From: a virus
Lineage: Duplodnaviria > Heunggongvirae > Uroviricota > Caudoviricetes
Length of the DNA stretch: 24,740 nt
Virus record (IMG/VR): IMGVR_UViG_648276671_000014
Reading direction: 5' to 3' (one strand)
Shown: positions 3,332-13,344 of the stretch, piece after piece
How the letters are laid out: each line of letters starts with the position of its first letter
Numbering within the stretch: the first letter of the stretch is position 1
The notes under the pieces: generated by a model
Database searches by the model: none
What the model was told of the DNA's origin: nothing
The model's input: the letters and a program-made list of their open reading frames with translations, nothing else
Position numbers and translations under genes: made by a program

Positions 3332-3673
3332 ATGGCAATTAATGGCGCTGCGGCGACTGTTCCATTAAGCCCCGGTGAACGCCTGAATGGACTTAATCAC
3401 ATTGCGGAATTAAGGGCGAAAGTATTTGGCCTGAATATTGAGTCAGAGCTTGAGCGGTTTATTAAAGATATGCGTGATCCACGGGATATCAATAACGAAC
3501 AAAATAAACGGGCACTGGCTGCTATATTCTTTATGGCAAAAATTCCAGCTGAACGTCATAGCATCAGCATTAATGAGCTGACCACTGACGAAAAGCGGGA
3601 GTTGATTAAAGCAATGAATCATTTTCGTGCAGTGGTGAGCTTATTTCCCAGACGGCTAACCATGCCGAATTAA
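3332..3673 (+). CDS. Hypothetical early protein (113 aa)
   Basis: ORF with ATG start in the early operon; no recognisable motif. Confidence 0.6.
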   Translation: MAINGAAATVPLSPGERLNGLNHIAELRAKVFGLNIESELERFIKDMRDPRDINNEQNKRALAAIFFMAKIPAERHSISINELTTDEKRELIKAMNHFRAVVSLFPRRLTMPN

Positions 3674-3740
3674 CCAACTAATGAAATTAATGGCGTAAAC
3701 CCGCCGGGTATCCCTTTATCTAAATTCAGGAGAATTGATT

Positions 3741-3974
3741 ATGCGTAATATTGAAACTCTCACGACTAAAACCGGACCGGATGATGCAGGGCTTAATATT
3801 TTACTGACAGAGGCTCGTCTGGAAGAACGCCGGGCAAGGGCTGAAGCAATGGCAGCTCGCCTTGATAGCCTGGCGTGTCATATCACATCCCGCCAGCTAA
3901 ACCACGTCGAAGCAGCAGAACTACTGCGTGTAACTGCTGAAGCAATCCAGAACGAAGCGCAGGAGATCCACTAA
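3741..3974 (+). CDS. Hypothetical early protein (77 aa from ATG 3741)
   Basis: CAGGAG Shine-Dalgarno 8 nt before ATG 3741; its stop overlaps the next start (TAATG). Confidence 0.6.
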   Translation: MRNIETLTTKTGPDDAGLNILLTEARLEERRARAEAMAARLDSLACHITSRQLNHVEAAELLRVTAEAIQNEAQEIH

Positions 3975-4201
3975 TGGCTGATGCAATGGATCTCGTACAG
4001 CAGCGAGTTGAAGAAGAACGCCAACGTCATATCCGTGCTGCCCGTGCCAAAACACCGGGCGTGTCCCGCGTGCTTTGCGTTGAGTGTGAAGCGCCAATTC
4101 CGCCAGCACGCCGTCGTGCCATTCCGGGTGTGCAGCTTTGCATTACCTGTCAGGAAATCGCAGAGCTGAAAGGCAAACATTACAACGGAGGTGCTGTATG
4201 A
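3974..4201 (+). CDS. TraR/DksA-family C4 zinc-finger protein (75 aa)
   Basis: CVEC...(16 aa)...CITC pattern near the C-terminus; translationally coupled on both sides. Confidence 0.75.
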   Translation: MADAMDLVQQRVEEERQRHIRAARAKTPGVSRVLCVECEAPIPPARRRAIPGVQLCITCQEIAELKGKHYNGGAV

Positions 4202-5055
4202 GCACCATCCTGAAATGGGCGGGAAATAAAACCGCCATTATGTCCGAACTGAAAAAACACCTTCCTGCTGGCCCGCGACTGGTTGAACCTTTCGCGGGTT
4301 CCTGTGCTGTGATGATGGCGACGGATTACCCCAGCTATCTGGTTGCTGATATTAATCCTGATTTAATCAACCTCTATAAAAAGATTGCCGCTGATTGCGA
4401 AGCGTTTATATCTCGTGCCAGAGCTTTATTTGAGGAAGCAAACAGGGAGGTGGCTTATTACAACATAAGGCAGGAGTTTAACTGCTCAACTGAAATTACT
4501 GACTTCATGAAAGCAGTATATTTCCTGTATCTCAATCGTCACGGTTACCGTGGGTTATGTCGCTATAACAAGAGCGGGCATTTCAACATTCCCTACGGTA
4601 ATTATAAAAATCCGTATTTCCCTGAAAAAGAAATTCGCGCATTTGCAGAGAAAGCCCAGCGAGCAACGTTTATCTGCGCCAGCTTTGATGAAACGCTGGC
4701 GATGCTGCAGGTGGGGGATGTGGTGTATTGCGATCCGCCTTATGACGGTACGTTTTCCGGCTATCACACTGACGGCTTCACTGAAGATGACCAGTATCAC
4801 CTGGCATCTGTTCTTGAATATCGATCATCAGAAGGTCATCCAGTCATTGTTTCTAACAGTGACACATCCCTGATCCGTTCGCTGTATCGAAATTTCACTC
4901 ACCACTACATCAAGGCAAAACGCAGCATCGGCGTGTCGGCTGGCGAGAGTAAATCTGCAACAGAAATCATTGCTGTTTCCGGGGCGCGCTGCTGGGTGGG
5001 ATTTGATCCTTCGTGTGGCGTGGATAGTTCTGCTGTGTACGAGGTGCGTATATGA
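4198..5055 (+). CDS. dam: Dam-like N6-adenine DNA methyltransferase (285 aa)
   Basis: N-terminal LKWAGNK...EPFAGS (AdoMet-binding) and catalytic DPPY motif; [14 protein letters not shown] segment resembles E. coli Dam; GGAG Shine-Dalgarno, start overlaps the upstream stop (ATGA). Confidence 0.85.
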
Positions 5056-7466
5056 GTCATGACGATATGAGCAACTCTAGCGGCTTTAACGAGGCCGCTG
5101 CAGCATTTTCATGGAACGGCCCGAAAAAGGCCATTAACCCTTATCTGGACCCGGCGGAAGTTGCGCCGGAGTCTGCACTTTCAAACCTGATCACTCTGTA
5201 CGCTGCCGATAATGAGCAGGAACAGCTGCGCCGCGATGCACTGAGTGAGCAGGTCTGGGAGCGTTATTTCTTTAATGAATCTCGTGATCCTGTCCAGCGC
5301 GAAATGGAGCAGGATAAGCTCATTAGCCGGGCAAAGCTGGCGCATGAACAGCAGCGTTTTAACCCGGACATGGTCATTCTGGCGGACGTCAGCGCCCAGC
5401 CCACCCATATTAGCAAGCCGCTGATGCAACGTATCGAATACTTCAGCAGCCTGGGCAGGCCAAAGGCTTATTCCCGCTATTTGCGTGAGACGATTAAGCC
5501 ATGTCTGGAGCGACTGGATTGTGTACGTGACAGTCAGCTGTCTGCTTCTTTCCGTTTTATGGCAAGCCATCAAGGGCTGGAGGGCCTGCTGATCCTGCCT
5601 GAAATGAGTCAGGATCAGGTGAAACGCCTGTCCACCCTGGTAGCTGCGCATATGAGCATGTGCCTTGATGCAGCTTGTGGCGATTTGTATGCCACCGATG
5701 ACGTTAAGCCAGAAGAAATCCGCAAGACATGGGAAAAGGTGGCGGCGGAAACCCTGCGTCTGGATGTCATCCCACCTGCGTTTGAGCAACTCCGTCGGAA
5801 AAGAAACCGCCGTAAACCCGTGCCCTATGAACTCATTCCGGGTTCGCTGGCGCGTATGTTGTGCGCCGACTGGTGGTATCGGAAATTATGGAAGATGCGT
5901 TGCGAATGGCGGGAAGAGCAGTTGCGTGCTGTCTGCCTGGTCAGCAAAAAAGCATCTCCCTATGTCAGCTATGAAGCCGTGATGCATAAACGTGAGCAGC
6001 GCCGTAAGTCGCTGGAGTTTTTCCGTTCTCATGAACTGGTGAACGAAGACGGCGACACGCTGGACATGGAGGATGTGGTAAACGCCAGCAGCAGCAACCC
6101 TGCGCATCGCCGCAATGAGATGATGGCCTGTGTTAAAGGTCTGGAGCTTATCGCGGAAATGCGCGGTGACTGCGCCGTTTTCTACACTATCACCTGTCCG
6201 TCACGTTTCCATTCCACGCTCAACAACGGCAGACCCAACCCAACCTGGACAAATGCGACGGTAAGACAAAGCAGCGATTATCTGGTCGGCATGTTTGCTG
6301 CATTTCGTAAGGCAATGCACAAAACCGGGTTGCGCTGGTATGGCGTACGGGTGGCTGAGCCGCACCATGACGGTACTGTGCACTGGCATCTCATGTGCTT
6401 CATGCGTAAAAAAGACCGCCGCGCCATCACTGCATTACTGCGTAAGTTTGCCATCCGTGTAGACCGCGAGGAGCTGGGCAACAATACGGGGCCACGCTTT
6501 AAGTCTGAGCTGATTAACCCGCGCAAAGGAACACCGACAAGCTACATCGCGAAATACATCAGTAAGAACATTGACGGGCGTGGTCTGGCTGGCGAGATCA
6601 GCAAGGAAACGGGTAAATCCCTGCGTGATAACGCCGAATACGTCAATGCCTGGGCGTCTCTGCATCGTGTTCAGCAGTTCCGCTTCTTTGGTATTCCGGG
6701 ACGTCAGGCTTACCGTGAACTTCGCTTGCTGGCTGGTCAGGCGGCAAGGCAACAGGGTGACAAAAAAGCAGGTGCGCCGATACTGGATGACCCGCGCCTT
6801 GATGCCATCCTGGCTGCTGCTGATGCTGGTTGTTTTGCCACCTACATCATGAAGCAGGGCGGCGTACTGGTTCCCCGTAAATATCACCTTATCAGAACCG
6901 CTTATGAAATCAACGAAGAGCCGACCGCCTATGGCGATCACGGCATTCGTATTTATGGCATCTGGTCACCCATTGCAGAGGGCAAGATCTGCACTCATGC
7001 AGTGAAGTGGAAAATGGTTCGTAAGGCCGTTGACGTTCAGGAGGCGGTAGCCGACCAGGGCGCTTGCGCCCCTTGGACTCGTGGCAATAACTGTCCCCTT
7101 GCTGAAAATTTGAACCAACAAGGGAAAGACAAATCAGCTGATGGGGATACCAGGACGGACATTACCCGCATGGATGACAAGGAGTTGCACGATTACCTGC
7201 ACAGTATGAGCAAAAAAGAGCGCCGGGAACTGGCTGCAAGGTTACGCCTGGTGAAACCGAAACGGCGTAAAGACTACAAACAGCGAATTACAGACCATCA
7301 GCGACAGCGGCTCGTCTATGAACTGAAGTCCAGAGGATTTGATGGCAGCGAGAAAGAGGTCGATTTACTCCTTCGCGGCGGCAGTATTCCGTCAGGAGCA
7401 GGCCTGCGTATCTTCTATCGGAACCAGCGTTTGCAGGAAGATGATAAGTGGCGAAACCTGTATTAA
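5052..7466 (+). CDS. A: Replication initiation endonuclease, gpA/RepA type (804 aa)
   Basis: Large early ORF in the expected position and size, with the tyrosine-containing [12 protein letters not shown] segment remembered from P2 A family proteins; start overlaps the dam stop. Confidence 0.9.
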
Positions 7467-8322: not shown

Positions 8323-8538
8323 ATGTCAAGCATCGCCGCATTTAGCCTGGGTAACCCAGTTGAACGTCTGGCAAGGGTTCTTAAAGAGAACCAGGACAAA
8401 CTCAATCTTAGTAAAGATGGTTTTGTGTCCGTAGACTTGTCTAACAAAAGAGCAATGGATGCCATCAAGGCACAGATGGATAAGCTTGAAGGCATCAAAA
8501 CGAGCACTGTAAAAGAGAAAACTAATAGAACCAGATAA
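8323..8538 (+). CDS. Hypothetical protein (71 aa), first gene of an AT-rich cargo operon
   Basis: GGGGGAG Shine-Dalgarno before ATG 8323; hydrophilic; stop overlaps the next start (TAATG). Confidence 0.55.
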   Translation: MSSIAAFSLGNPVERLARVLKENQDKLNLSKDGFVSVDLSNKRAMDAIKAQMDKLEGIKTSTVKEKTNRTR

Positions 8539-8738
8539 TGGCAACATTACTTTTAGCAGTGATTTTGGTTAGTGGTTTTATTTATGTAAACCTATCACTT
8601 TCAACAAGATACCGATATAAGCGTTCCAACGGCTGGGACGCTTATTTTTTGTGGCTGCCTGGGGTATCGTTTTTTTCTCCTTGGCGGTTTTTTCACCTTT
8701 ATTTTGAACGTCAGCGGAGGGTTTCGTTGGCTGGCTAA
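8538..8738 (+). CDS. Small membrane ORF (66 aa), probably the N-terminal fragment of a frameshifted multi-pass membrane protein
   Basis: Translationally coupled ATG; hydrophobic helix LLLAVILVSGFIYVNL; reading frame ends just after three poly-T tracts. Confidence 0.4.
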   Translation: MATLLLAVILVSGFIYVNLSLSTRYRYKRSNGWDAYFLWLPGVSFFSPWRFFHLYFERQRRVSLAG

Positions 8739-8772
8739 TGCCTTGAATCTAACACCTGACAGTTTTAATGGC

Positions 8773-9378
8773 ATGTTGTCTTCATCGAAAGACAAACTTC
8801 AAAGAATAAATGAAATCAAACAGATAGCATGGGTTATGATTTCAATTGTTCTCGCTGCGATTTCAGGTTTTGGAAATAAGTTACGCACATCACGTGGAGA
8901 TCGTCGCTGGGATGCCTTAGCTAAAGCTGTGGGTAATAACGCTTTCGAATCATTACTCATGGAAGCGTCCGCAAGACAGTTTCCGATCATAGCAACTCTG
9001 TCGTCTCGCAAAATCTATGTTGGTCTTGTTACTTGTCCGGCGTTAGAAAACGGGCTTTCAGAACACCTTGAACTTCTCCCGATGTTAAGCGGATATCGGG
9101 ATAAAGATGATCTAACGATTAGTATCACGACTAACTATCACCAACATTATCTTGATAGTGGTGTGATAAGTGGAATGTCTCGGCTTAATATCGAAGATTT
9201 CCGTGTGCTCATACCAAAAGATGAGGTTGAAACAATTTCGTTTTTTGATACTGAGACATATAACAAATTTAAAGAAAATGAAGCCAGGGATAGAAAGAAC
9301 TGTCGAAAGATTGGTAGTAAAAGTGCATCTTCGCGCAGCAAGCGTGCAGCAGATGCTGAGTCAAATGATCGTGCATGA
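8773..9378 (+). CDS. Hypothetical protein (201 aa from ATG 8773; frame is open from 8590), probably the C-terminal continuation of the 8538 gene
   Basis: No Shine-Dalgarno before ATG 8773 or the upstream TTG 8704; frame stays open back into the 8538 ORF; hydrophobic segment IAWVMISIVLAAISGF then a soluble domain. Confidence 0.45.
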   Translation: MLSSSKDKLQRINEIKQIAWVMISIVLAAISGFGNKLRTSRGDRRWDALAKAVGNNAFESLLMEASARQFPIIATLSSRKIYVGLVTCPALENGLSEHLELLPMLSGYRDKDDLTISITTNYHQHYLDSGVISGMSRLNIEDFRVLIPKDEVETISFFDTETYNKFKENEARDRKNCRKIGSKSASSRSKRAADAESNDRA

Positions 9379-9426
9379 CTATGCTGCATGAGATCGCATG
9401 ATCGTTTGAGGATCGTTTTTGCTAAG

Positions 9427-9450
9427 GCCCGCCAGAACTGGCGGGCTTTT
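9427..9450 (+). terminator. Rho-independent terminator (GCCCGCCA-GAAC-TGGCGGGC then TTTT)
   Basis: Perfect 8-bp GC-rich stem followed by a T run, 49 bp after the operon stop. Confidence 0.6.
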
Positions 9451-9495
9451 GCGTAGATCATGCACCTGCATGAAAACTACTACATAAAGCGGGCA

Positions 9496-9514
9496 GGCGT
9501 GGCGGGGATACGAG
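9496..9514. other. Candidate cos cohesive-end site (GGCGTGGCGGGGATACGAG)
   Basis: First 13 nt match the remembered 186/P2 cohesive end (GGCG[T/A]GGCGGGGA...), followed by TGCGCG as in P2; lies between the early region and portal gene Q. Confidence 0.4.
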
Positions 9515-9538
9515 TGCGCGTAATAACTAATATTCCTA

Positions 9539-9567
9539 TTGACTTTCTATGATGCAATAGCTAATTT
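9539..9567 (+). promoter_or_regulatory. Putative promoter (-35 TTGACT, 17-nt spacer, -10 TAATTT) for the tRNA-like leader and HEPN-motif ORF
   Basis: Hexamers read directly; would start transcription at about 9574. Confidence 0.35.
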
Positions 9568-9573
9568 ATTTCT

Positions 9574-9657
9574 AGGCCTATAGTTTAATTTGGGAAAACG
9601 GCGGAGTATGATTTAGGTTATATATCCGTCATACCGGTTCGATTCCGGTTAGGCAAA
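9574..9657 (+). other. tRNA-like element (degenerate tRNA or tRNA mimic)
   Basis: Canonical T-arm ACCGG-TTCGATT-CCGGT (9633-9649), D-arm GTTT-AATTTGGGA-AAAC (9583-9599), U8-A9-like TA, 5 of 7 acceptor pairs; anticodon stem is not canonical and there is no CCA. Confidence 0.35.
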
Positions 9658-9685
9658 GAGCATTTTAGAGTGTTCTTTGCCTAAC
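9648..9685 (+). repeat. Perfect 12-bp inverted repeat (GTTAGGCAAAGA ... TCTTTGCCTAAC) forming a long hairpin ending 1 nt before the Shine-Dalgarno of the downstream ORF
   Basis: Arms at 9648-9659 and 9674-9685 are exact reverse complements; the loop can pair further with G-U pairs. Confidence 0.8.
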
Positions 9686-9697
9686 AGGATACGTAAA

Positions 9698-10447
9698 ATG
9701 ACTGATGACGAGATTAAAAATATTTTCCATGCTCAAACTGATAATGTTAGAGAGCTTGAGAAAGTCTGGAAACAAATAGTCAAAGAAATTAATACTGCAT
9801 TACGAACAGATAATGCAGTCCAAGTTGCACTTAAAACCAAAATGCTAGGTTTGGTTTTTTGCGCTCTTGCCGAAGCTCAATTTTCAAAGTTGATCCACAC
9901 GCCCGGTCAATTTTCCCCTAATGAAATAGAACAGATTAAATATGCAGCTTCATCTAATGTCTCAGATGGATGGTTAAAGTGCATAAATTTGGCTACGAGA
10001 CGACTATCGAAAGGCACAAAGCATAATCATGTTCCTAATGTTATTCAGGAGCTTGAAAGACTAGTTGATGATTTTATAAAAGCGCCAAGTTTAATTAGAA
10101 ATAAAATTGCGCATGGACAATGGGTTGTCGCTCTTAATAGAAAGAATACACATGTGAACTCAGAAATGACACATACTTTGCGTAATTTGACAATAGTGGA
10201 ATTAACAAAGTTTAAAGATGCTTTCACGAGAATGTCGCGAATAGTCGAAGATATTATTAAATCTCCTAATAAAGCTCATTTGCGTGATTATTGGCCGCAG
10301 CTTGAAGAGTTTAGAGCAAAGCAAAAGGAAATGGATAGTTGGACTCTTGCTGAAAAAGTCTTCCAATTAAAAAAGAAATATAATTACTCATCTAATATGA
10401 GATGTGAATCATGCGGTCAGTTACATGTTGATAGAAATAAACAATGA
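9698..10447 (+). CDS. HEPN-motif protein (249 aa), candidate RNase or abortive-infection effector
   Basis: AGGA Shine-Dalgarno 8 nt before ATG 9698; R134-N-K-I-A-H139 fits the HEPN Rx4-6H signature; AT-rich codon usage unlike the phage core. Confidence 0.65.
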   Translation: MTDDEIKNIFHAQTDNVRELEKVWKQIVKEINTALRTDNAVQVALKTKMLGLVFCALAEAQFSKLIHTPGQFSPNEIEQIKYAASSNVSDGWLKCINLATRRLSKGTKHNHVPNVIQELERLVDDFIKAPSLIRNKIAHGQWVVALNRKNTHVNSEMTHTLRNLTIVELTKFKDAFTRMSRIVEDIIKSPNKAHLRDYWPQLEEFRAKQKEMDSWTLAEKVFQLKKKYNYSSNMRCESCGQLHVDRNKQ

Positions 10448-10494
10448 TGATTATTATTTTGTGACACTTTCAATATTTTAATGCTTTATATATT

Positions 10495-10522
10495 AGCAAT
10501 GGTCATTAACATGACCATTGCT
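10495..10522. repeat. Perfect palindrome (AGCAATGGTCAT-TAAC-ATGACCATTGCT) between the HEPN-motif ORF and Q
   Basis: 12-bp arms are exact reverse complements with a 4-nt loop; no flanking T run. Confidence 0.8.
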
Positions 10523-10537
10523 ATGTGACCTAATATA

Positions 10538-11581
10538 TTAGTTATCTTCTGTCCTGAGCGAGTAAAAGCTAAAACGGAGAATTTCTTCACCAAGCCAGTT
10601 ATTTAGTTCCTGTAAACGTTTCTGCAGTGACATTAGTTCATTGCGTACAAAAACGCGACTAGCTTTCTCCACATCCCCAAATCCCCCAACATTATTTGGC
10701 ATTATCCCCATCATCTGTGGCGGCACGCGGTGCGCTGCCATCATGTCATCCCGACTCACGTTCTTGATATTAAGAAATTCATCCTTCGCCGCGACTTCTG
10801 ACAATGGGATGATCTGAAGCCCGTCCTTTTTGCCGTTAGGCGAGTACATAAACAGGTTGCGGAAGTTGCCTGGACCTTTGGCGCTTTTCATCGCGTTGCG
10901 GAGGTTGTTCACATCTTCCTGGTTCTGCGCGGCATCGGTCATGTACATGATGAAGCCTGCATGGCTGCCGTTGATGTAATACTTACGGCGGAACAGCGTG
11001 GCAGACTCGTTGAGCAGGGCGGATGGAATGGCAGAAAGATAGCCGGGCAGGCCGTAGATCTCCTGGTTGATGTCCGGTTCCATCAGATGAAAAATGCTGC
11101 CTTTCGTGAACTGATACGGCTGGGTTGTCATACCGTATTGCACAAACCAGTAGGTATCCAGGTCTAACCCGCGTCGGGTGTATTTTGCCAGCGCAGGCTC
11201 AAGGGCGATAACTTCACCGAATCGGTTCGTGCGTTTCTCCAGGTAGGCGTTACCAAATACCAGATAGTCCTGCACAAAACGCGAAAAAGCCTGCTGGCTG
11301 AGCAGCGGATGAGGGATATAGGTACTGGTCAGAATGTTGCACTTTACTGCAATCGGGGAACTGTGATGCACGGCGGCGCGGAAGGTGCGCGCCAGTCCGT
11401 TAAAGCTGACGGGCGGCTCATACCAACGGTCCATCTGTACGCATTCCACATAGTCCAGCAGTTCACGGCGGTCCAGAACAGGAACGGGATCGCCGAAGCT
11501 GAATGCTTCGGCTGTAGTTTGACTTTTAAGCTGGATCTGTTTCGTCGCCGCAGCTCGGTTCTTCTTACTCTTTCCCATCAA
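10538..11581 (-). CDS. Q: Portal protein gpQ (347 aa)
   Basis: Size and position immediately after cos and upstream of P as in P2/186; stop overlaps P (ATGA). Confidence 0.9.
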   Translation of the reverse strand: MMGKSKKNRAAATKQIQLKSQTTAEAFSFGDPVPVLDRRELLDYVECVQMDRWYEPPVSFNGLARTFRAAVHHSSPIAVKCNILTSTYIPHPLLSQQAFSRFVQDYLVFGNAYLEKRTNRFGEVIALEPALAKYTRRGLDLDTYWFVQYGMTTQPYQFTKGSIFHLMEPDINQEIYGLPGYLSAIPSALLNESATLFRRKYYINGSHAGFIMYMTDAAQNQEDVNNLRNAMKSAKGPGNFRNLFMYSPNGKKDGLQIIPLSEVAAKDEFLNIKNVSRDDMMAAHRVPPQMMGIMPNNVGGFGDVEKASRVFVRNELMSLQKRLQELNNWLGEEILRFSFYSLRTEDN

Positions 11582-13344
11582 AAAATCTCCACAATATTGC
11601 TGGTATTGGCGGATTCGCCCTGCAGCGGTTCGTTAAACAGTGCGTGCATCGTTGCCCATGCCAGATCGGCGTGGCTGGCTTCTTCGCTGCGGCTGGCTTC
11701 ATAGGTCGGGCGGTTGCCACTGGCGGTGGTGGCGCGACGGATTGCCATAAATGACTGCGCAATGTCGGTATGTCCGGCGTCAAACTCCAGACGGCGGTGG
11801 CTGATAATGTCGTAGGCCTTGAGTACCAGGGCGTTTTTAACGTTGGGGTTGTAGACAAACTCCCGGACGGCAGGAAAGAACGCTTTCACGTTCTCGTAAA
11901 CCCCGTGACCAACGCCGGTTGAGTCGATGCCGATGTAGGTCACGTTGTACTGCTCGGTCAGTTTTTTGATTGCGTCAGCCTGGGCGCGGAAGTCCATCCC
12001 GCGCCACTGGTGACGCTCAAGAATGCGAAACTTACCGCCCGGCACGGCTGGCGGTGCCACCACCACGCATCCGGCGCTGTCGCCGTTCTGCGTACCTTTT
12101 GCCGGGTCATAACCGATCCACACTTCGCGCCAGCCAAACGGGCGCAGGGCCAGAGCATGAAAGTCGGTCCAGACTTCCCAACTGTCCACCATGCACGCCT
12201 GCAGCTCGCTGAGCGGAAACACGGACGCGAGATCGTCCACAAACTCGCACATCAGCAGGTTCTGGTATTCGTCCAGGCTGTACTCCATGCGCAACTGGTC
12301 GAGGTCGAACAGGTTACAGCCGCCGCGCACCGCATCTTCCACAGTGACTATCTGGCGGTACTGCCCGTCTGCGCACAGCAGGCCGGGGGCCAGATTGCTG
12401 TGGGACAGGTCGATGTCCACCTTATCGGCTTTGTTGCGCCCACGATTGAACAGCGCACCGGACCAGAACGGATAAGCACTGTGAGTCAGGCTGGATGGCG
12501 TGGAAAAATAGGTTTGTCGCCATTTTTTGTGAATAGCCATCCCGGAAGCCACTTTGCGCAGCTCCTGGAATTTCGGTATCCAGAAATATTCATCCAGATA
12601 CAGGTTGCCGTGGTAACTCTGGGCCGTGCGGGCATTGGTGCCGAGGAAGTAAAGCGTGGCTCCGTTAGGAAGCACCATCGGATCGCCTTTTAGCTCTACC
12701 TCGACTTCTTTGGCGAAGTCGATGATGTACTGCTTAAAGACGTGAGCCTGTGCCTTACTGGCGGAAAGGAAAATCTGGTTACGTCCGGTAAGCAGGGCGT
12801 CAATCAGGGCTTCACGGGCAAAGTAAAAGGTCGCGCCGATCTGGCGTGACTTCAGCAGGTTGCGGATGCGGTTGGTTTTTCCGGCTTCCCACCAGTGGCG
12901 CTGGTAGTTGAACATGGAGGAATGGAAGATTTCTTCCAGTTTCTCAATCTGTTCATCGGTGAAAACATTCTTTTCCGGCTGACGGCGCGGGCCCTTATTG
13001 CGGTTGGCGACGTTAGGGTTTAAGTCAGCTTCGTTGCCGCCATTGTTAAACTTGCCGATCCGCGCGTGGCGCTCCGACTGGCGCGCCAGCAGGTCAATTT
13101 CTTTGAAATCTTTCCCTTCTTTATGCTCCTTCATGATGAGCTGGCAGTAGCGTGCGGCGGTGGTGAGCTGCATCTGATCCAGCGGCCCATAGTCACCCCA
13201 CTTGTCGCGTTTTTTCCAGCTGTGAACGGTTGCAACTTTCTCGCCCAGCATTTCAGCAATGCGGGCTACGCGGTATCCCTGAAAGTACAGCAGCATGGCC
13301 TGCCGACGGGGATCGAGATCTGCGGGTGTCAGTGTGGTGTTCAT
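11578..13344 (-). CDS. P: Terminase large (ATPase) subunit gpP (588 aa)
   Basis: Size matches P2 P; divergent from O across the late promoter region. Confidence 0.9.
   Translation of the reverse strand: MNTTLTPADLDPRRQAMLLYFQGYRVARIAEMLGEKVATVHSWKKRDKWGDYGPLDQMQLTTAARYCQLIMKEHKEGKDFKEIDLLARQSERHARIGKFNNGGNEADLNPNVANRNKGPRRQPEKNVFTDEQIEKLEEIFHSSMFNYQRHWWEAGKTNRIRNLLKSRQIGATFYFAREALIDALLTGRNQIFLSASKAQAHVFKQYIIDFAKEVEVELKGDPMVLPNGATLYFLGTNARTAQSYHGNLYLDEYFWIPKFQELRKVASGMAIHKKWRQTYFSTPSSLTHSAYPFWSGALFNRGRNKADKVDIDLSHSNLAPGLLCADGQYRQIVTVEDAVRGGCNLFDLDQLRMEYSLDEYQNLLMCEFVDDLASVFPLSELQACMVDSWEVWTDFHALALRPFGWREVWIGYDPAKGTQNGDSAGCVVVAPPAVPGGKFRILERHQWRGMDFRAQADAIKKLTEQYNVTYIGIDSTGVGHGVYENVKAFFPAVREFVYNPNVKNALVLKAYDIISHRRLEFDAGHTDIAQSFMAIRRATTASGNRPTYEASRSEEASHADLAWATMHALFNEPLQGESANTSNIVEIF

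Follow-up and report, generated by a model that had tools for sequence, protein, structure and literature searches.

The locus and its genomic setting

The window, by which we mean the whole 24,740-nt stretch of DNA that was analysed, is a P2-type prophage that encodes, among other proteins, a gpA-like replication protein and a DinI-like protein. Between gpA and the portal gene, in the gpA-gpQ interval, lies a small cassette made up of a promoter-like site, a leader containing a tRNA-like element and a perfect inverted repeat, and one open reading frame for a HEPN-like protein. The features of the region are as follows.

5052-7466: gene for the gpA-like replication protein
9421-9456, plus strand: terminator-like hairpin and T run (inverted repeat I6, 9421-9435/9438-9452, then TTTT), closing the upstream gene
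9539-9567, plus strand: putative sigma-70 promoter (-35 TTGACT 9539-9544, 17-nt spacer, -10 TAATTT 9562-9567)
9574-9655, plus strand: tRNA-like element with acceptor, D arm, long tetraloop-capped 'anticodon' arm and T arm
9576-9580/9650-9654, plus strand: acceptor stem, 5 bp
9583-9599, plus strand: D arm
9600-9630, plus strand: 'anticodon' arm, 13 bp with a tetraloop cap, without an anticodon loop
9633-9649, plus strand: T arm (T stem 9633-9637/9645-9649, loop TTCGATT)
9644-9646, plus strand: TCC at the T loop/T stem junction, pairing with the Shine-Dalgarno GGA 9687-9689 in the minimum free energy (MFE) fold and in inverted repeat I1
9648-9685, plus strand: hairpin of 17 bp (9648-9664/9669-9685) with tetraloop UUAG 9665-9668
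9686-9689, plus strand: Shine-Dalgarno AGGA, with 8 nt between it and the ATG at 9698; its GGA (9687-9689) is base-paired when the hairpin is extended
9698-10447, plus strand: HEPN-like ORF, 249 aa, all-helical, with RNKIAHGQW (R134 to H139 encoded at 10097-10114)
10494-10523, no strand assigned: 13-bp perfect inverted repeat I8 (TAGCAATGGTCAT/ATGACCATTGCTA, 4-nt gap), separating the HEPN-like ORF and the portal gene, which converge
10538-11581, minus strand: portal gene
11578-13344, minus strand: terminase gene

The gpA-gpQ interval of P2 is a defence hotspot (PMC9122126), and the location of the cassette is circumstantial evidence for a role in defence. Comparison with near relatives by blastn indicates that the cassette (9371-10452) moves as one unit between differing flanks: homology to loci L096 and L081 starts at 9371, and homology to L081 stops at 10452. 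The terminator-like hairpin at 9421-9456 sits near its 5' edge, and I8 is probably a two-way terminator on its 3' side. DNA similarity searches with the cassette gave no match in E. coli genomes or phage records, and tblastn gave none against phage records. Upstream, segment 8063-9370 is swapped in L096 for another gene (DUF8087) on the opposite strand. The window carries there two overlapping ORFs in different frames, 8538-8738 and 8704-9378, that both match phrog_3630 (profile positions 1-38 and 68-273 of 274) and look like one frameshift-split gene, either a pseudogene or a case of programmed shifting.

The putative promoter at 9539-9567 is omitted by the promoter consensus scan, and its -10 element matches the consensus at only 3/6 positions; an ..AAT box stands 6 nt 5' of the leading GG in nearly all aligned loci. 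We infer a transcription start at about 9574/9575, right where the tRNA-like element begins. The promoter-like site, the leader and the ORF follow one another without interruption, and the RNA lies upstream of the gene in 78 of 78 loci, pointing to a single transcription unit.

The AlphaFold2 model of the encoded protein is all-helical, with a pLDDT of 89.6. Residues R134, N135, K136, A138, H139 and G140 are invariant in 32 sequences, a spacing that falls within the Rx4-6H pattern of HEPN proteins; an Rx4H motif of the RN type is typical of HEPN RNases (general knowledge and PMC3710099). Searches with PADLOC, NCBIfam and Pfam returned no significant family. The Pfam matches were weak ones within the HEPN clan, to AbiU2, MAE_28990 and Swt1 (E = 0.002-0.05), the PADLOC defence catalogue held no match at E <= 0.1, and Abi_2 matched none of the 32 family members scanned. 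The initial annotation had spoken of a HEPN-motif ORF. The RNKIAHG motif is there and its RNxxxH residues are invariant, but we write HEPN-like rather than HEPN because the label is drawn from this motif and the weak Pfam matches, while profile and fold searches do not establish membership. The 249-aa protein is probably an RNase. There are at least 160 homologues in the 90%-clustered collection, and 436 representatives of 50%-identity clusters match, nearly all of them about 235 aa long. None of the homologues carries a functional name, the few named entries being 'hypothetical protein', and the sole match in PHROGs is phrog_12663, a family of unknown function.

Two mutually exclusive folds of the leader

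Positions 9576-9654 match the Rfam tRNA model RF00005 with 30.7 bits against a gathering score of 29, and the tRNA family is the only one in Rfam 15 that matches the leader RNA. A cloverleaf with T and D loops is thus present above the Rfam threshold, and all four of its stems covary. In the alignment to RF00005, however, the position of the 7-nt anticodon loop is occupied by 19 nt. The acceptor has 5 bp, not 7, with the outer GG/AA positions unpaired in 25/25 and 24/25 sequences of a MAFFT alignment (see below). There is no CCA end on the window element; its acceptor stem is directly followed by AAAG, which is conserved in the aligned loci. ARAGORN called no tRNA in the window. Across loci it reports a tRNA at the leader in about 24 of 60, assigning 11 different anticodons, or 'anticodons' of 2 or 4 nt, with identities that range over Lys, Arg, Pyl, Pro, Gln, Met, Ile, Leu, Asn and Asp. 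Given such inconsistent or misshapen 'anticodons', we regard this as a tRNA-like element without decoding identity. A genuine tRNA gene was considered and rejected, there being no 7-nt anticodon loop, no 7-bp acceptor, no CCA and no constant anticodon. Public genome annotations probably list leaders of this kind as tRNA or pseudo-tRNA genes; loci with an ARAGORN call include L002, L004, L031, L039, L058, L059, L061, L064, L067, L070 and L073.

The tRNA-like element runs into the inverted repeat. As the initial annotation had stated, GTTAGGCAAAGA (9648-9659) and TCTTTGCCTAAC (9674-9685) are, by direct reading, exact reverse complements over 12 bp, and the helix can be extended with the help of G-U pairs; five further pairs (G9660.U9673, C9661-G9672, A9662-U9671, U9663.G9670 and U9664-A9669) bring it to the 17 bp that RNAfold also gives. 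The hairpin is the MFE fold of 9570-9700, at -45 kcal/mol (z = -5.35; 0/200 shuffles as low). It corresponds to inverted repeat I1 (arms 9644-9662/9671-9689), which ranks first in the 24.7-kb window, and by our own arithmetic about 0.06 perfect 12-bp inverted repeats within 40 nt would be expected per 24.7 kb. The inverted repeat is thereby confirmed as genuine, beyond what chance would supply.

The 5' arm of the hairpin contains the last two bases of the T stem and the entire 3' strand of the acceptor (9648-9654). Since 9648-9654 are used both by the hairpin and by the tRNA-like stems, the two folds are mutually exclusive, just as had been proposed from the overlap with the acceptor strand, and both helices covary across phyla. 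The competition is wider than the acceptor: the T stem and T loop are also involved, through the pairing of TCC 9644-9646 with GGA 9687-9689. On the other side, the hairpin had been said to end 1 nt before AGGA. It does adjoin the ribosome-binding site, but the gap to AGGA 9686-9689 is zero, and only the GGA of the Shine-Dalgarno begins 1 nt after the hairpin end.

In 51 loci the hairpin is predicted to be the more stable conformer, on average by 15.6 kcal/mol relative to the tRNA-constrained fold (range 8.3-25.1), on nearest-neighbour energies that ignore tRNA tertiary contacts. Averaged over these loci, the unpaired probability of the Shine-Dalgarno region goes from 0.33 without constraint to 0.54 under a forced tRNA fold (p = 8e-7). 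The window itself shows no such rise (0.34 unconstrained, 0.28 forced), and the accessibility of its AUG falls from 0.67 to 0.12. Of the two conformations, the hairpin is the MFE structure, and forcing the tRNA fold does not raise the predicted accessibility of the Shine-Dalgarno of the window. In the tRNA-constrained fold, CAUUUUA (9661-9667) of the upper hairpin is paired with the complementary UAAAAUG (9694-9700) at the start codon. A conserved pairing between GCAUUU of the upper hairpin and AAAUG(C) of the start region was tried and rejected, 17 of 200 permutations reaching the observed value in 51 loci.

The start codon follows the foot of the hairpin by 9-22 nt in most loci, and a Shine-Dalgarno-like motif stands 0-8 nt from the hairpin end in 29 of 51. 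A strong U tract (>=6 T in 8) follows the hairpin in loci L074, L076 and L080, and L035 has a six-T run a few bases further on. Altogether, T runs of 5-8 T about 0-10 nt after the hairpin are seen in 3-4 loci, mostly Bacteroidota; most proteobacterial loci carry a Shine-Dalgarno where these four have the T run. Judged from such flanking sequences, the output of the hairpin may differ by lineage. Bacteroidota largely do without Shine-Dalgarno pairing, and the hairpin is retained in them; it is also kept in the remote relatives L091-L095, in which the ORF apparently starts >100 nt downstream. Hiding the ribosome-binding site is thus not a role that all these hairpins can share.

Covariation and RNA-protein linkage across genomes

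By scanning one genome per species we obtained 80 loci, from Proteobacteria, Bryobacterales, Myxococcota, Nitrospirota, Bacillota, Chloroflexota, Bacteroidota and other groups. Covariation was assessed in two alignments. The first was a structure-blind MAFFT alignment of 25 loci, in which pairing in the 17-bp hairpin reaches 98.6%, both partners have changed at nine pairs and G-U pairs are many, and the acceptor shows compensatory changes at 5/5 pairs. For the second, 51 loci were aligned by a covariance model that contained only the cloverleaf and the non-overlapping upper hairpin. The lower hairpin, left out of this model, appears in columns 111-117 as seven pairs, each 96-100% paired and six of them with changes on both sides; the acceptor is 94.9% paired in the same alignment. 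The 5-mer that the two helices share occurs in 27 sequence versions among the 51 loci, and in 39 of them it is fully complementary to both the acceptor 5' strand and the hairpin 3' arm. There are 97 G-U cells and 6 A-C cells, and therefore the structure is formed by RNA of the sense strand. RNAalifold independently recovers the 17-bp hairpin. The three-way covariation in these alignments establishes two exclusive sense-strand RNA helices. The check across homologous loci that the initial annotation had suggested comes out in favour of the two folds: both helices are kept by compensatory changes, in the 25-locus as in the 51-locus alignment, and the repeat is conserved in related loci, 51 of which have a near-perfect hairpin of 17-24 bp.

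Comparison of the window with its closest relative, L081, leads to the same picture of constraint on the leader. The ORF is 71% identical between the two and its third codon positions 50% identical, against 97% for the hairpin, where the single change turns a G.U pair into A-U, and 100% for the T arm. The acceptor/D region is 96% identical and the 'anticodon' arm 55%. The hairpin and the T arm are under purifying selection.

The RNA and the protein are tied to one another. A tRNA-type T loop (GTTCRANYC) lies within about 100 nt of the ORF start in all 78 loci that have upstream sequence, for a chance expectation of about 1.4% per locus by our own arithmetic. An all-against-all comparison of neighbouring ORFs found no second conserved protein, be it an antitoxin, a nucleotidyltransferase or a DNA-binding protein. 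We conclude from these two results that the unit consists of one RNA and one protein, and this RNA-plus-protein module is widespread in bacteria. Viral relatives at 19-29% protein identity keep both the tRNA-like element and the hairpin. A scan of viral contigs for the T arm followed by AAAG gave seven matches, three of which are the known module; the other four are without hairpin and RNxxxH ORF, and at least L100 and L103 lie inside coding sequence. Our literature search, whose coverage of subscription journals was thin, found no description of a module of tRNA-like leader and HEPN-like gene, and the phrases tRNA-like, tRNA gene(s), non-coding RNA and RNA antitoxin are all absent from the HEPN census paper.

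The hairpin is not present throughout. In a second class of loci the acceptor is GGGGG/CCCCC and the 'anticodon' arm is capped by a tetraloop, with no hairpin downstream (L033, L037, L040, L046, L047, L049-L053, L057, L059, L060, L066, L067, L070, L072, L073, L077 and L079). In L016 the usual tRNA-like element (2368-2449) has no hairpin and the ATG follows the acceptor by 6 nt. Two modules that differ from each other lie about 850 nt apart on an Olleya contig (L053): the first (1881-2546) has a tRNA-like element without hairpin and an ORF, and the second (3390-4290) a divergent tRNA-like element, a 15-bp competing hairpin and a 257-aa paralogue with IRNRIAHGQW. From the existence of hairpin-less loci it follows that the tRNA-like RNA is the core partner of the protein and that the hairpin is a class-specific add-on. 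The effect common to hairpins of the class is therefore the unfolding of the tRNA shape, occlusion of the ribosome-binding site being one output among several.

A proposed two-state leader and its alternatives

Our interpretation, to which we give a probability of about 0.55, is that a 5' leader with two states has the inverted repeat for its ground-state helix, with the hairpin as an OFF or storage state and the tRNA-like fold as the alternative. The structural half of this interpretation stands on both helices, their exclusivity and conservation, and their position beside the start codon; its regulatory half we put forward conditionally. The transcript would start at the first base of the tRNA-shaped element, which would then be the first part to fold during transcription. 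The 10-bp upper hairpin, directly after the acceptor 3' strand and compatible with the cloverleaf, would form next to it and tether the competitor strand (9679-9685 plus GGA 9687-9689) beside the acceptor stem. This competitor could then displace the acceptor 5' strand, and after it part of the T arm, to give a hairpin of 17-20 bp in which the tRNA shape is lost and the helix reaches the ribosome-binding site. The tRNA-like fold, presumably the state that permits expression, would be populated transiently or when stabilised, candidate stabilisers being the HEPN-like protein, a factor that binds tRNA, or the melting of the lower helix by a ribosome. Leader and HEPN-like protein would together form a two-part RNA-protein unit in the P2 gpA-gpQ hotspot, after the manner of a type III toxin-antitoxin system or AbiF, and our best reading is that the leader would control, or would itself be, the RNA partner of a HEPN-like toxin. 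Of the riboswitch-type or protein-operator control point envisaged in the initial annotation, what survives is the pair of exclusive, conserved helices before a ribosome-binding site, an arrangement like that of riboswitch-type expression platforms; a DNA operator does not, given the preponderance of G-U over A-C cells.

A more specific version, which we offer tentatively and think on balance doubtful, is that the tRNA-shaped leader serves as a conditional pseudo-substrate antitoxin, or as a sensor, for a HEPN RNase directed at tRNA. The leader would present a tRNA mimic whose anticodon loop is replaced by a tetraloop arm that cannot be cut. Neutralisation, and with it translation of the toxin, would occur only while a ribosome or protein keeps the lower helix open, and shut-off induced by a phage would release the RNase.

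The two-state leader has to be set against other uses of such a hairpin. It might be a processing or stability element, either a cleavage site (for RNase III, for example) or a 5' stabiliser that remains once tRNA-type 3' processing is over; a small, stable RNA of tRNA-like form, acting as antitoxin, would be cut from the toxin mRNA so that the ratio of the two is set, and the overlap with the acceptor would merely position the cut. The length and near-perfection of the helix in 51 loci would suit this, as would the succession of an RNA and a toxin-like gene behind a single promoter, an order shared with type III systems, and the conserved AAAG directly after the acceptor. We nevertheless consider it unlikely, as a cleavage site needs no three-way covariation with the acceptor 5' strand, there is neither a CCA nor a 7-bp acceptor to direct tRNA 3' processing, and hairpin-less loci exist. 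Type III systems use a terminator between RNA gene and toxin, and a ToxIN-like attenuator or terminator, at which most transcripts would stop after the tRNA-like RNA, is suggested here by the T run right after the hairpin in L074, L076, L080 and, more weakly, L035. In the window, however, the hairpin is followed by AGGATACG, with no U tract, as is likewise the case in about 47 of the 51 loci, and RNA terminated at this point would be in the hairpin rather than the tRNA-like state, all of which makes this explanation improbable. For the window hairpin in particular, a Rho-independent terminator was rejected, there being no T run after 9685 and no entry in the terminator scan.

Explanations at the level of DNA fare worse. 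Integration commonly takes place in the 3' halves of tRNA genes, and this cassette does move, so that a recombination or att site derived from the 3' end of a tRNA gene might be imagined; alternatively, a perfect 12-bp palindrome-like repeat between promoter and gene could be the operator of a dimeric repressor. Yet the pairing is strand-specific, as expected of RNA, the arms vary in sequence while their complementarity is kept, no conserved DNA-binding protein is encoded nearby, and the covariation of the cloverleaf, D and anticodon stems included, speaks of selection on RNA and not on an att core; we judge either variant highly improbable. That a chance repeat might lie, functionless, beside a decayed tRNA gene could be argued from the failure of ARAGORN to find a tRNA and from the tendency of prophage hotspots to accumulate debris, but this is scarcely credible for an arrangement kept with compensatory changes in at least 51 loci of many phyla, and for a hairpin conserved at 97% where third codon positions have drifted to 50%.

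Among described systems, AbiF with its upstream ncRNA is the closest functional precedent. In C. difficile the upstream ncRNA RCd22 binds and neutralises the HEPN toxin and down-regulates it in cis (PMC12373285), and AbiF RNA acts, in cis as well as in trans, as a type III-like antitoxin (PMC12373285). In both AbiF/Abi_2 and the present module a single HEPN-type protein, here HEPN-like, is preceded by a structured ncRNA on the same strand, and both are prophage-borne; the present module differs in having no match to Abi_2 and none to the abiF motif in Rfam, and in pairing a cloverleaf mimic with a competing hairpin where the AbiF RNA consists of two abiF motifs. With type III systems (ToxIN, CptIN, TenpIN) it has in common an RNA directly 5' of an RNase-like gene, one putative promoter, a hairpin in between, and carriage on mobile or defence elements. 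Unlike type III antitoxins, it has no tandem repeats within 9350-10550; the window hairpin has no U-tract terminator, and the toxin families differ, ToxN not being a HEPN protein.

Riboswitches and T-box leaders resemble it in placing two exclusive conserved helices on one strand, the stabler of them adjoining the Shine-Dalgarno or a U tract, and in an output type that may vary by lineage. Here, though, the sensor is itself tRNA-shaped instead of a metabolite pocket or a tRNA-binding leader, and the gene is a toxin-like putative RNase, not a metabolic one. tRNA mimics within larger RNAs include the tRNA-like domain of tmRNA, the thrS operator, MALAT1 mascRNA and viral tRNA-like structures. Like these, the element does no decoding and combines an acceptor-like helix with D and T arms inside a longer transcript, but its acceptor is of 5 bp and lacks CCA. 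To our knowledge, none of these mimics has a downstream strand that unfolds acceptor and T arm, and none is linked to a HEPN-like gene.

The value of the finding lies in the widespread linkage of RNA and protein, in unusually clean covariation and in a model that is directly testable, since the three-way covariation defines three short strands to mutate and compensate. If our reading holds, the locus packs into about 1.1 kb an RNA-protein module whose RNA partner is a tRNA look-alike that carries the strand for its own unfolding. A class of 'pseudo-tRNA' annotation calls would then be explained, and the P2 hotspot would gain a candidate defence gene that current catalogues miss. Should the pseudo-substrate version prove true, the leader would be without precedent as a type III-like antitoxin that mimics tRNA and has a conformational switch built in. 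AbiF has been linked to the origin of Cas13, and the module would, if the reading is true, bring a new RNA architecture into the small group of HEPN toxins under RNA control.
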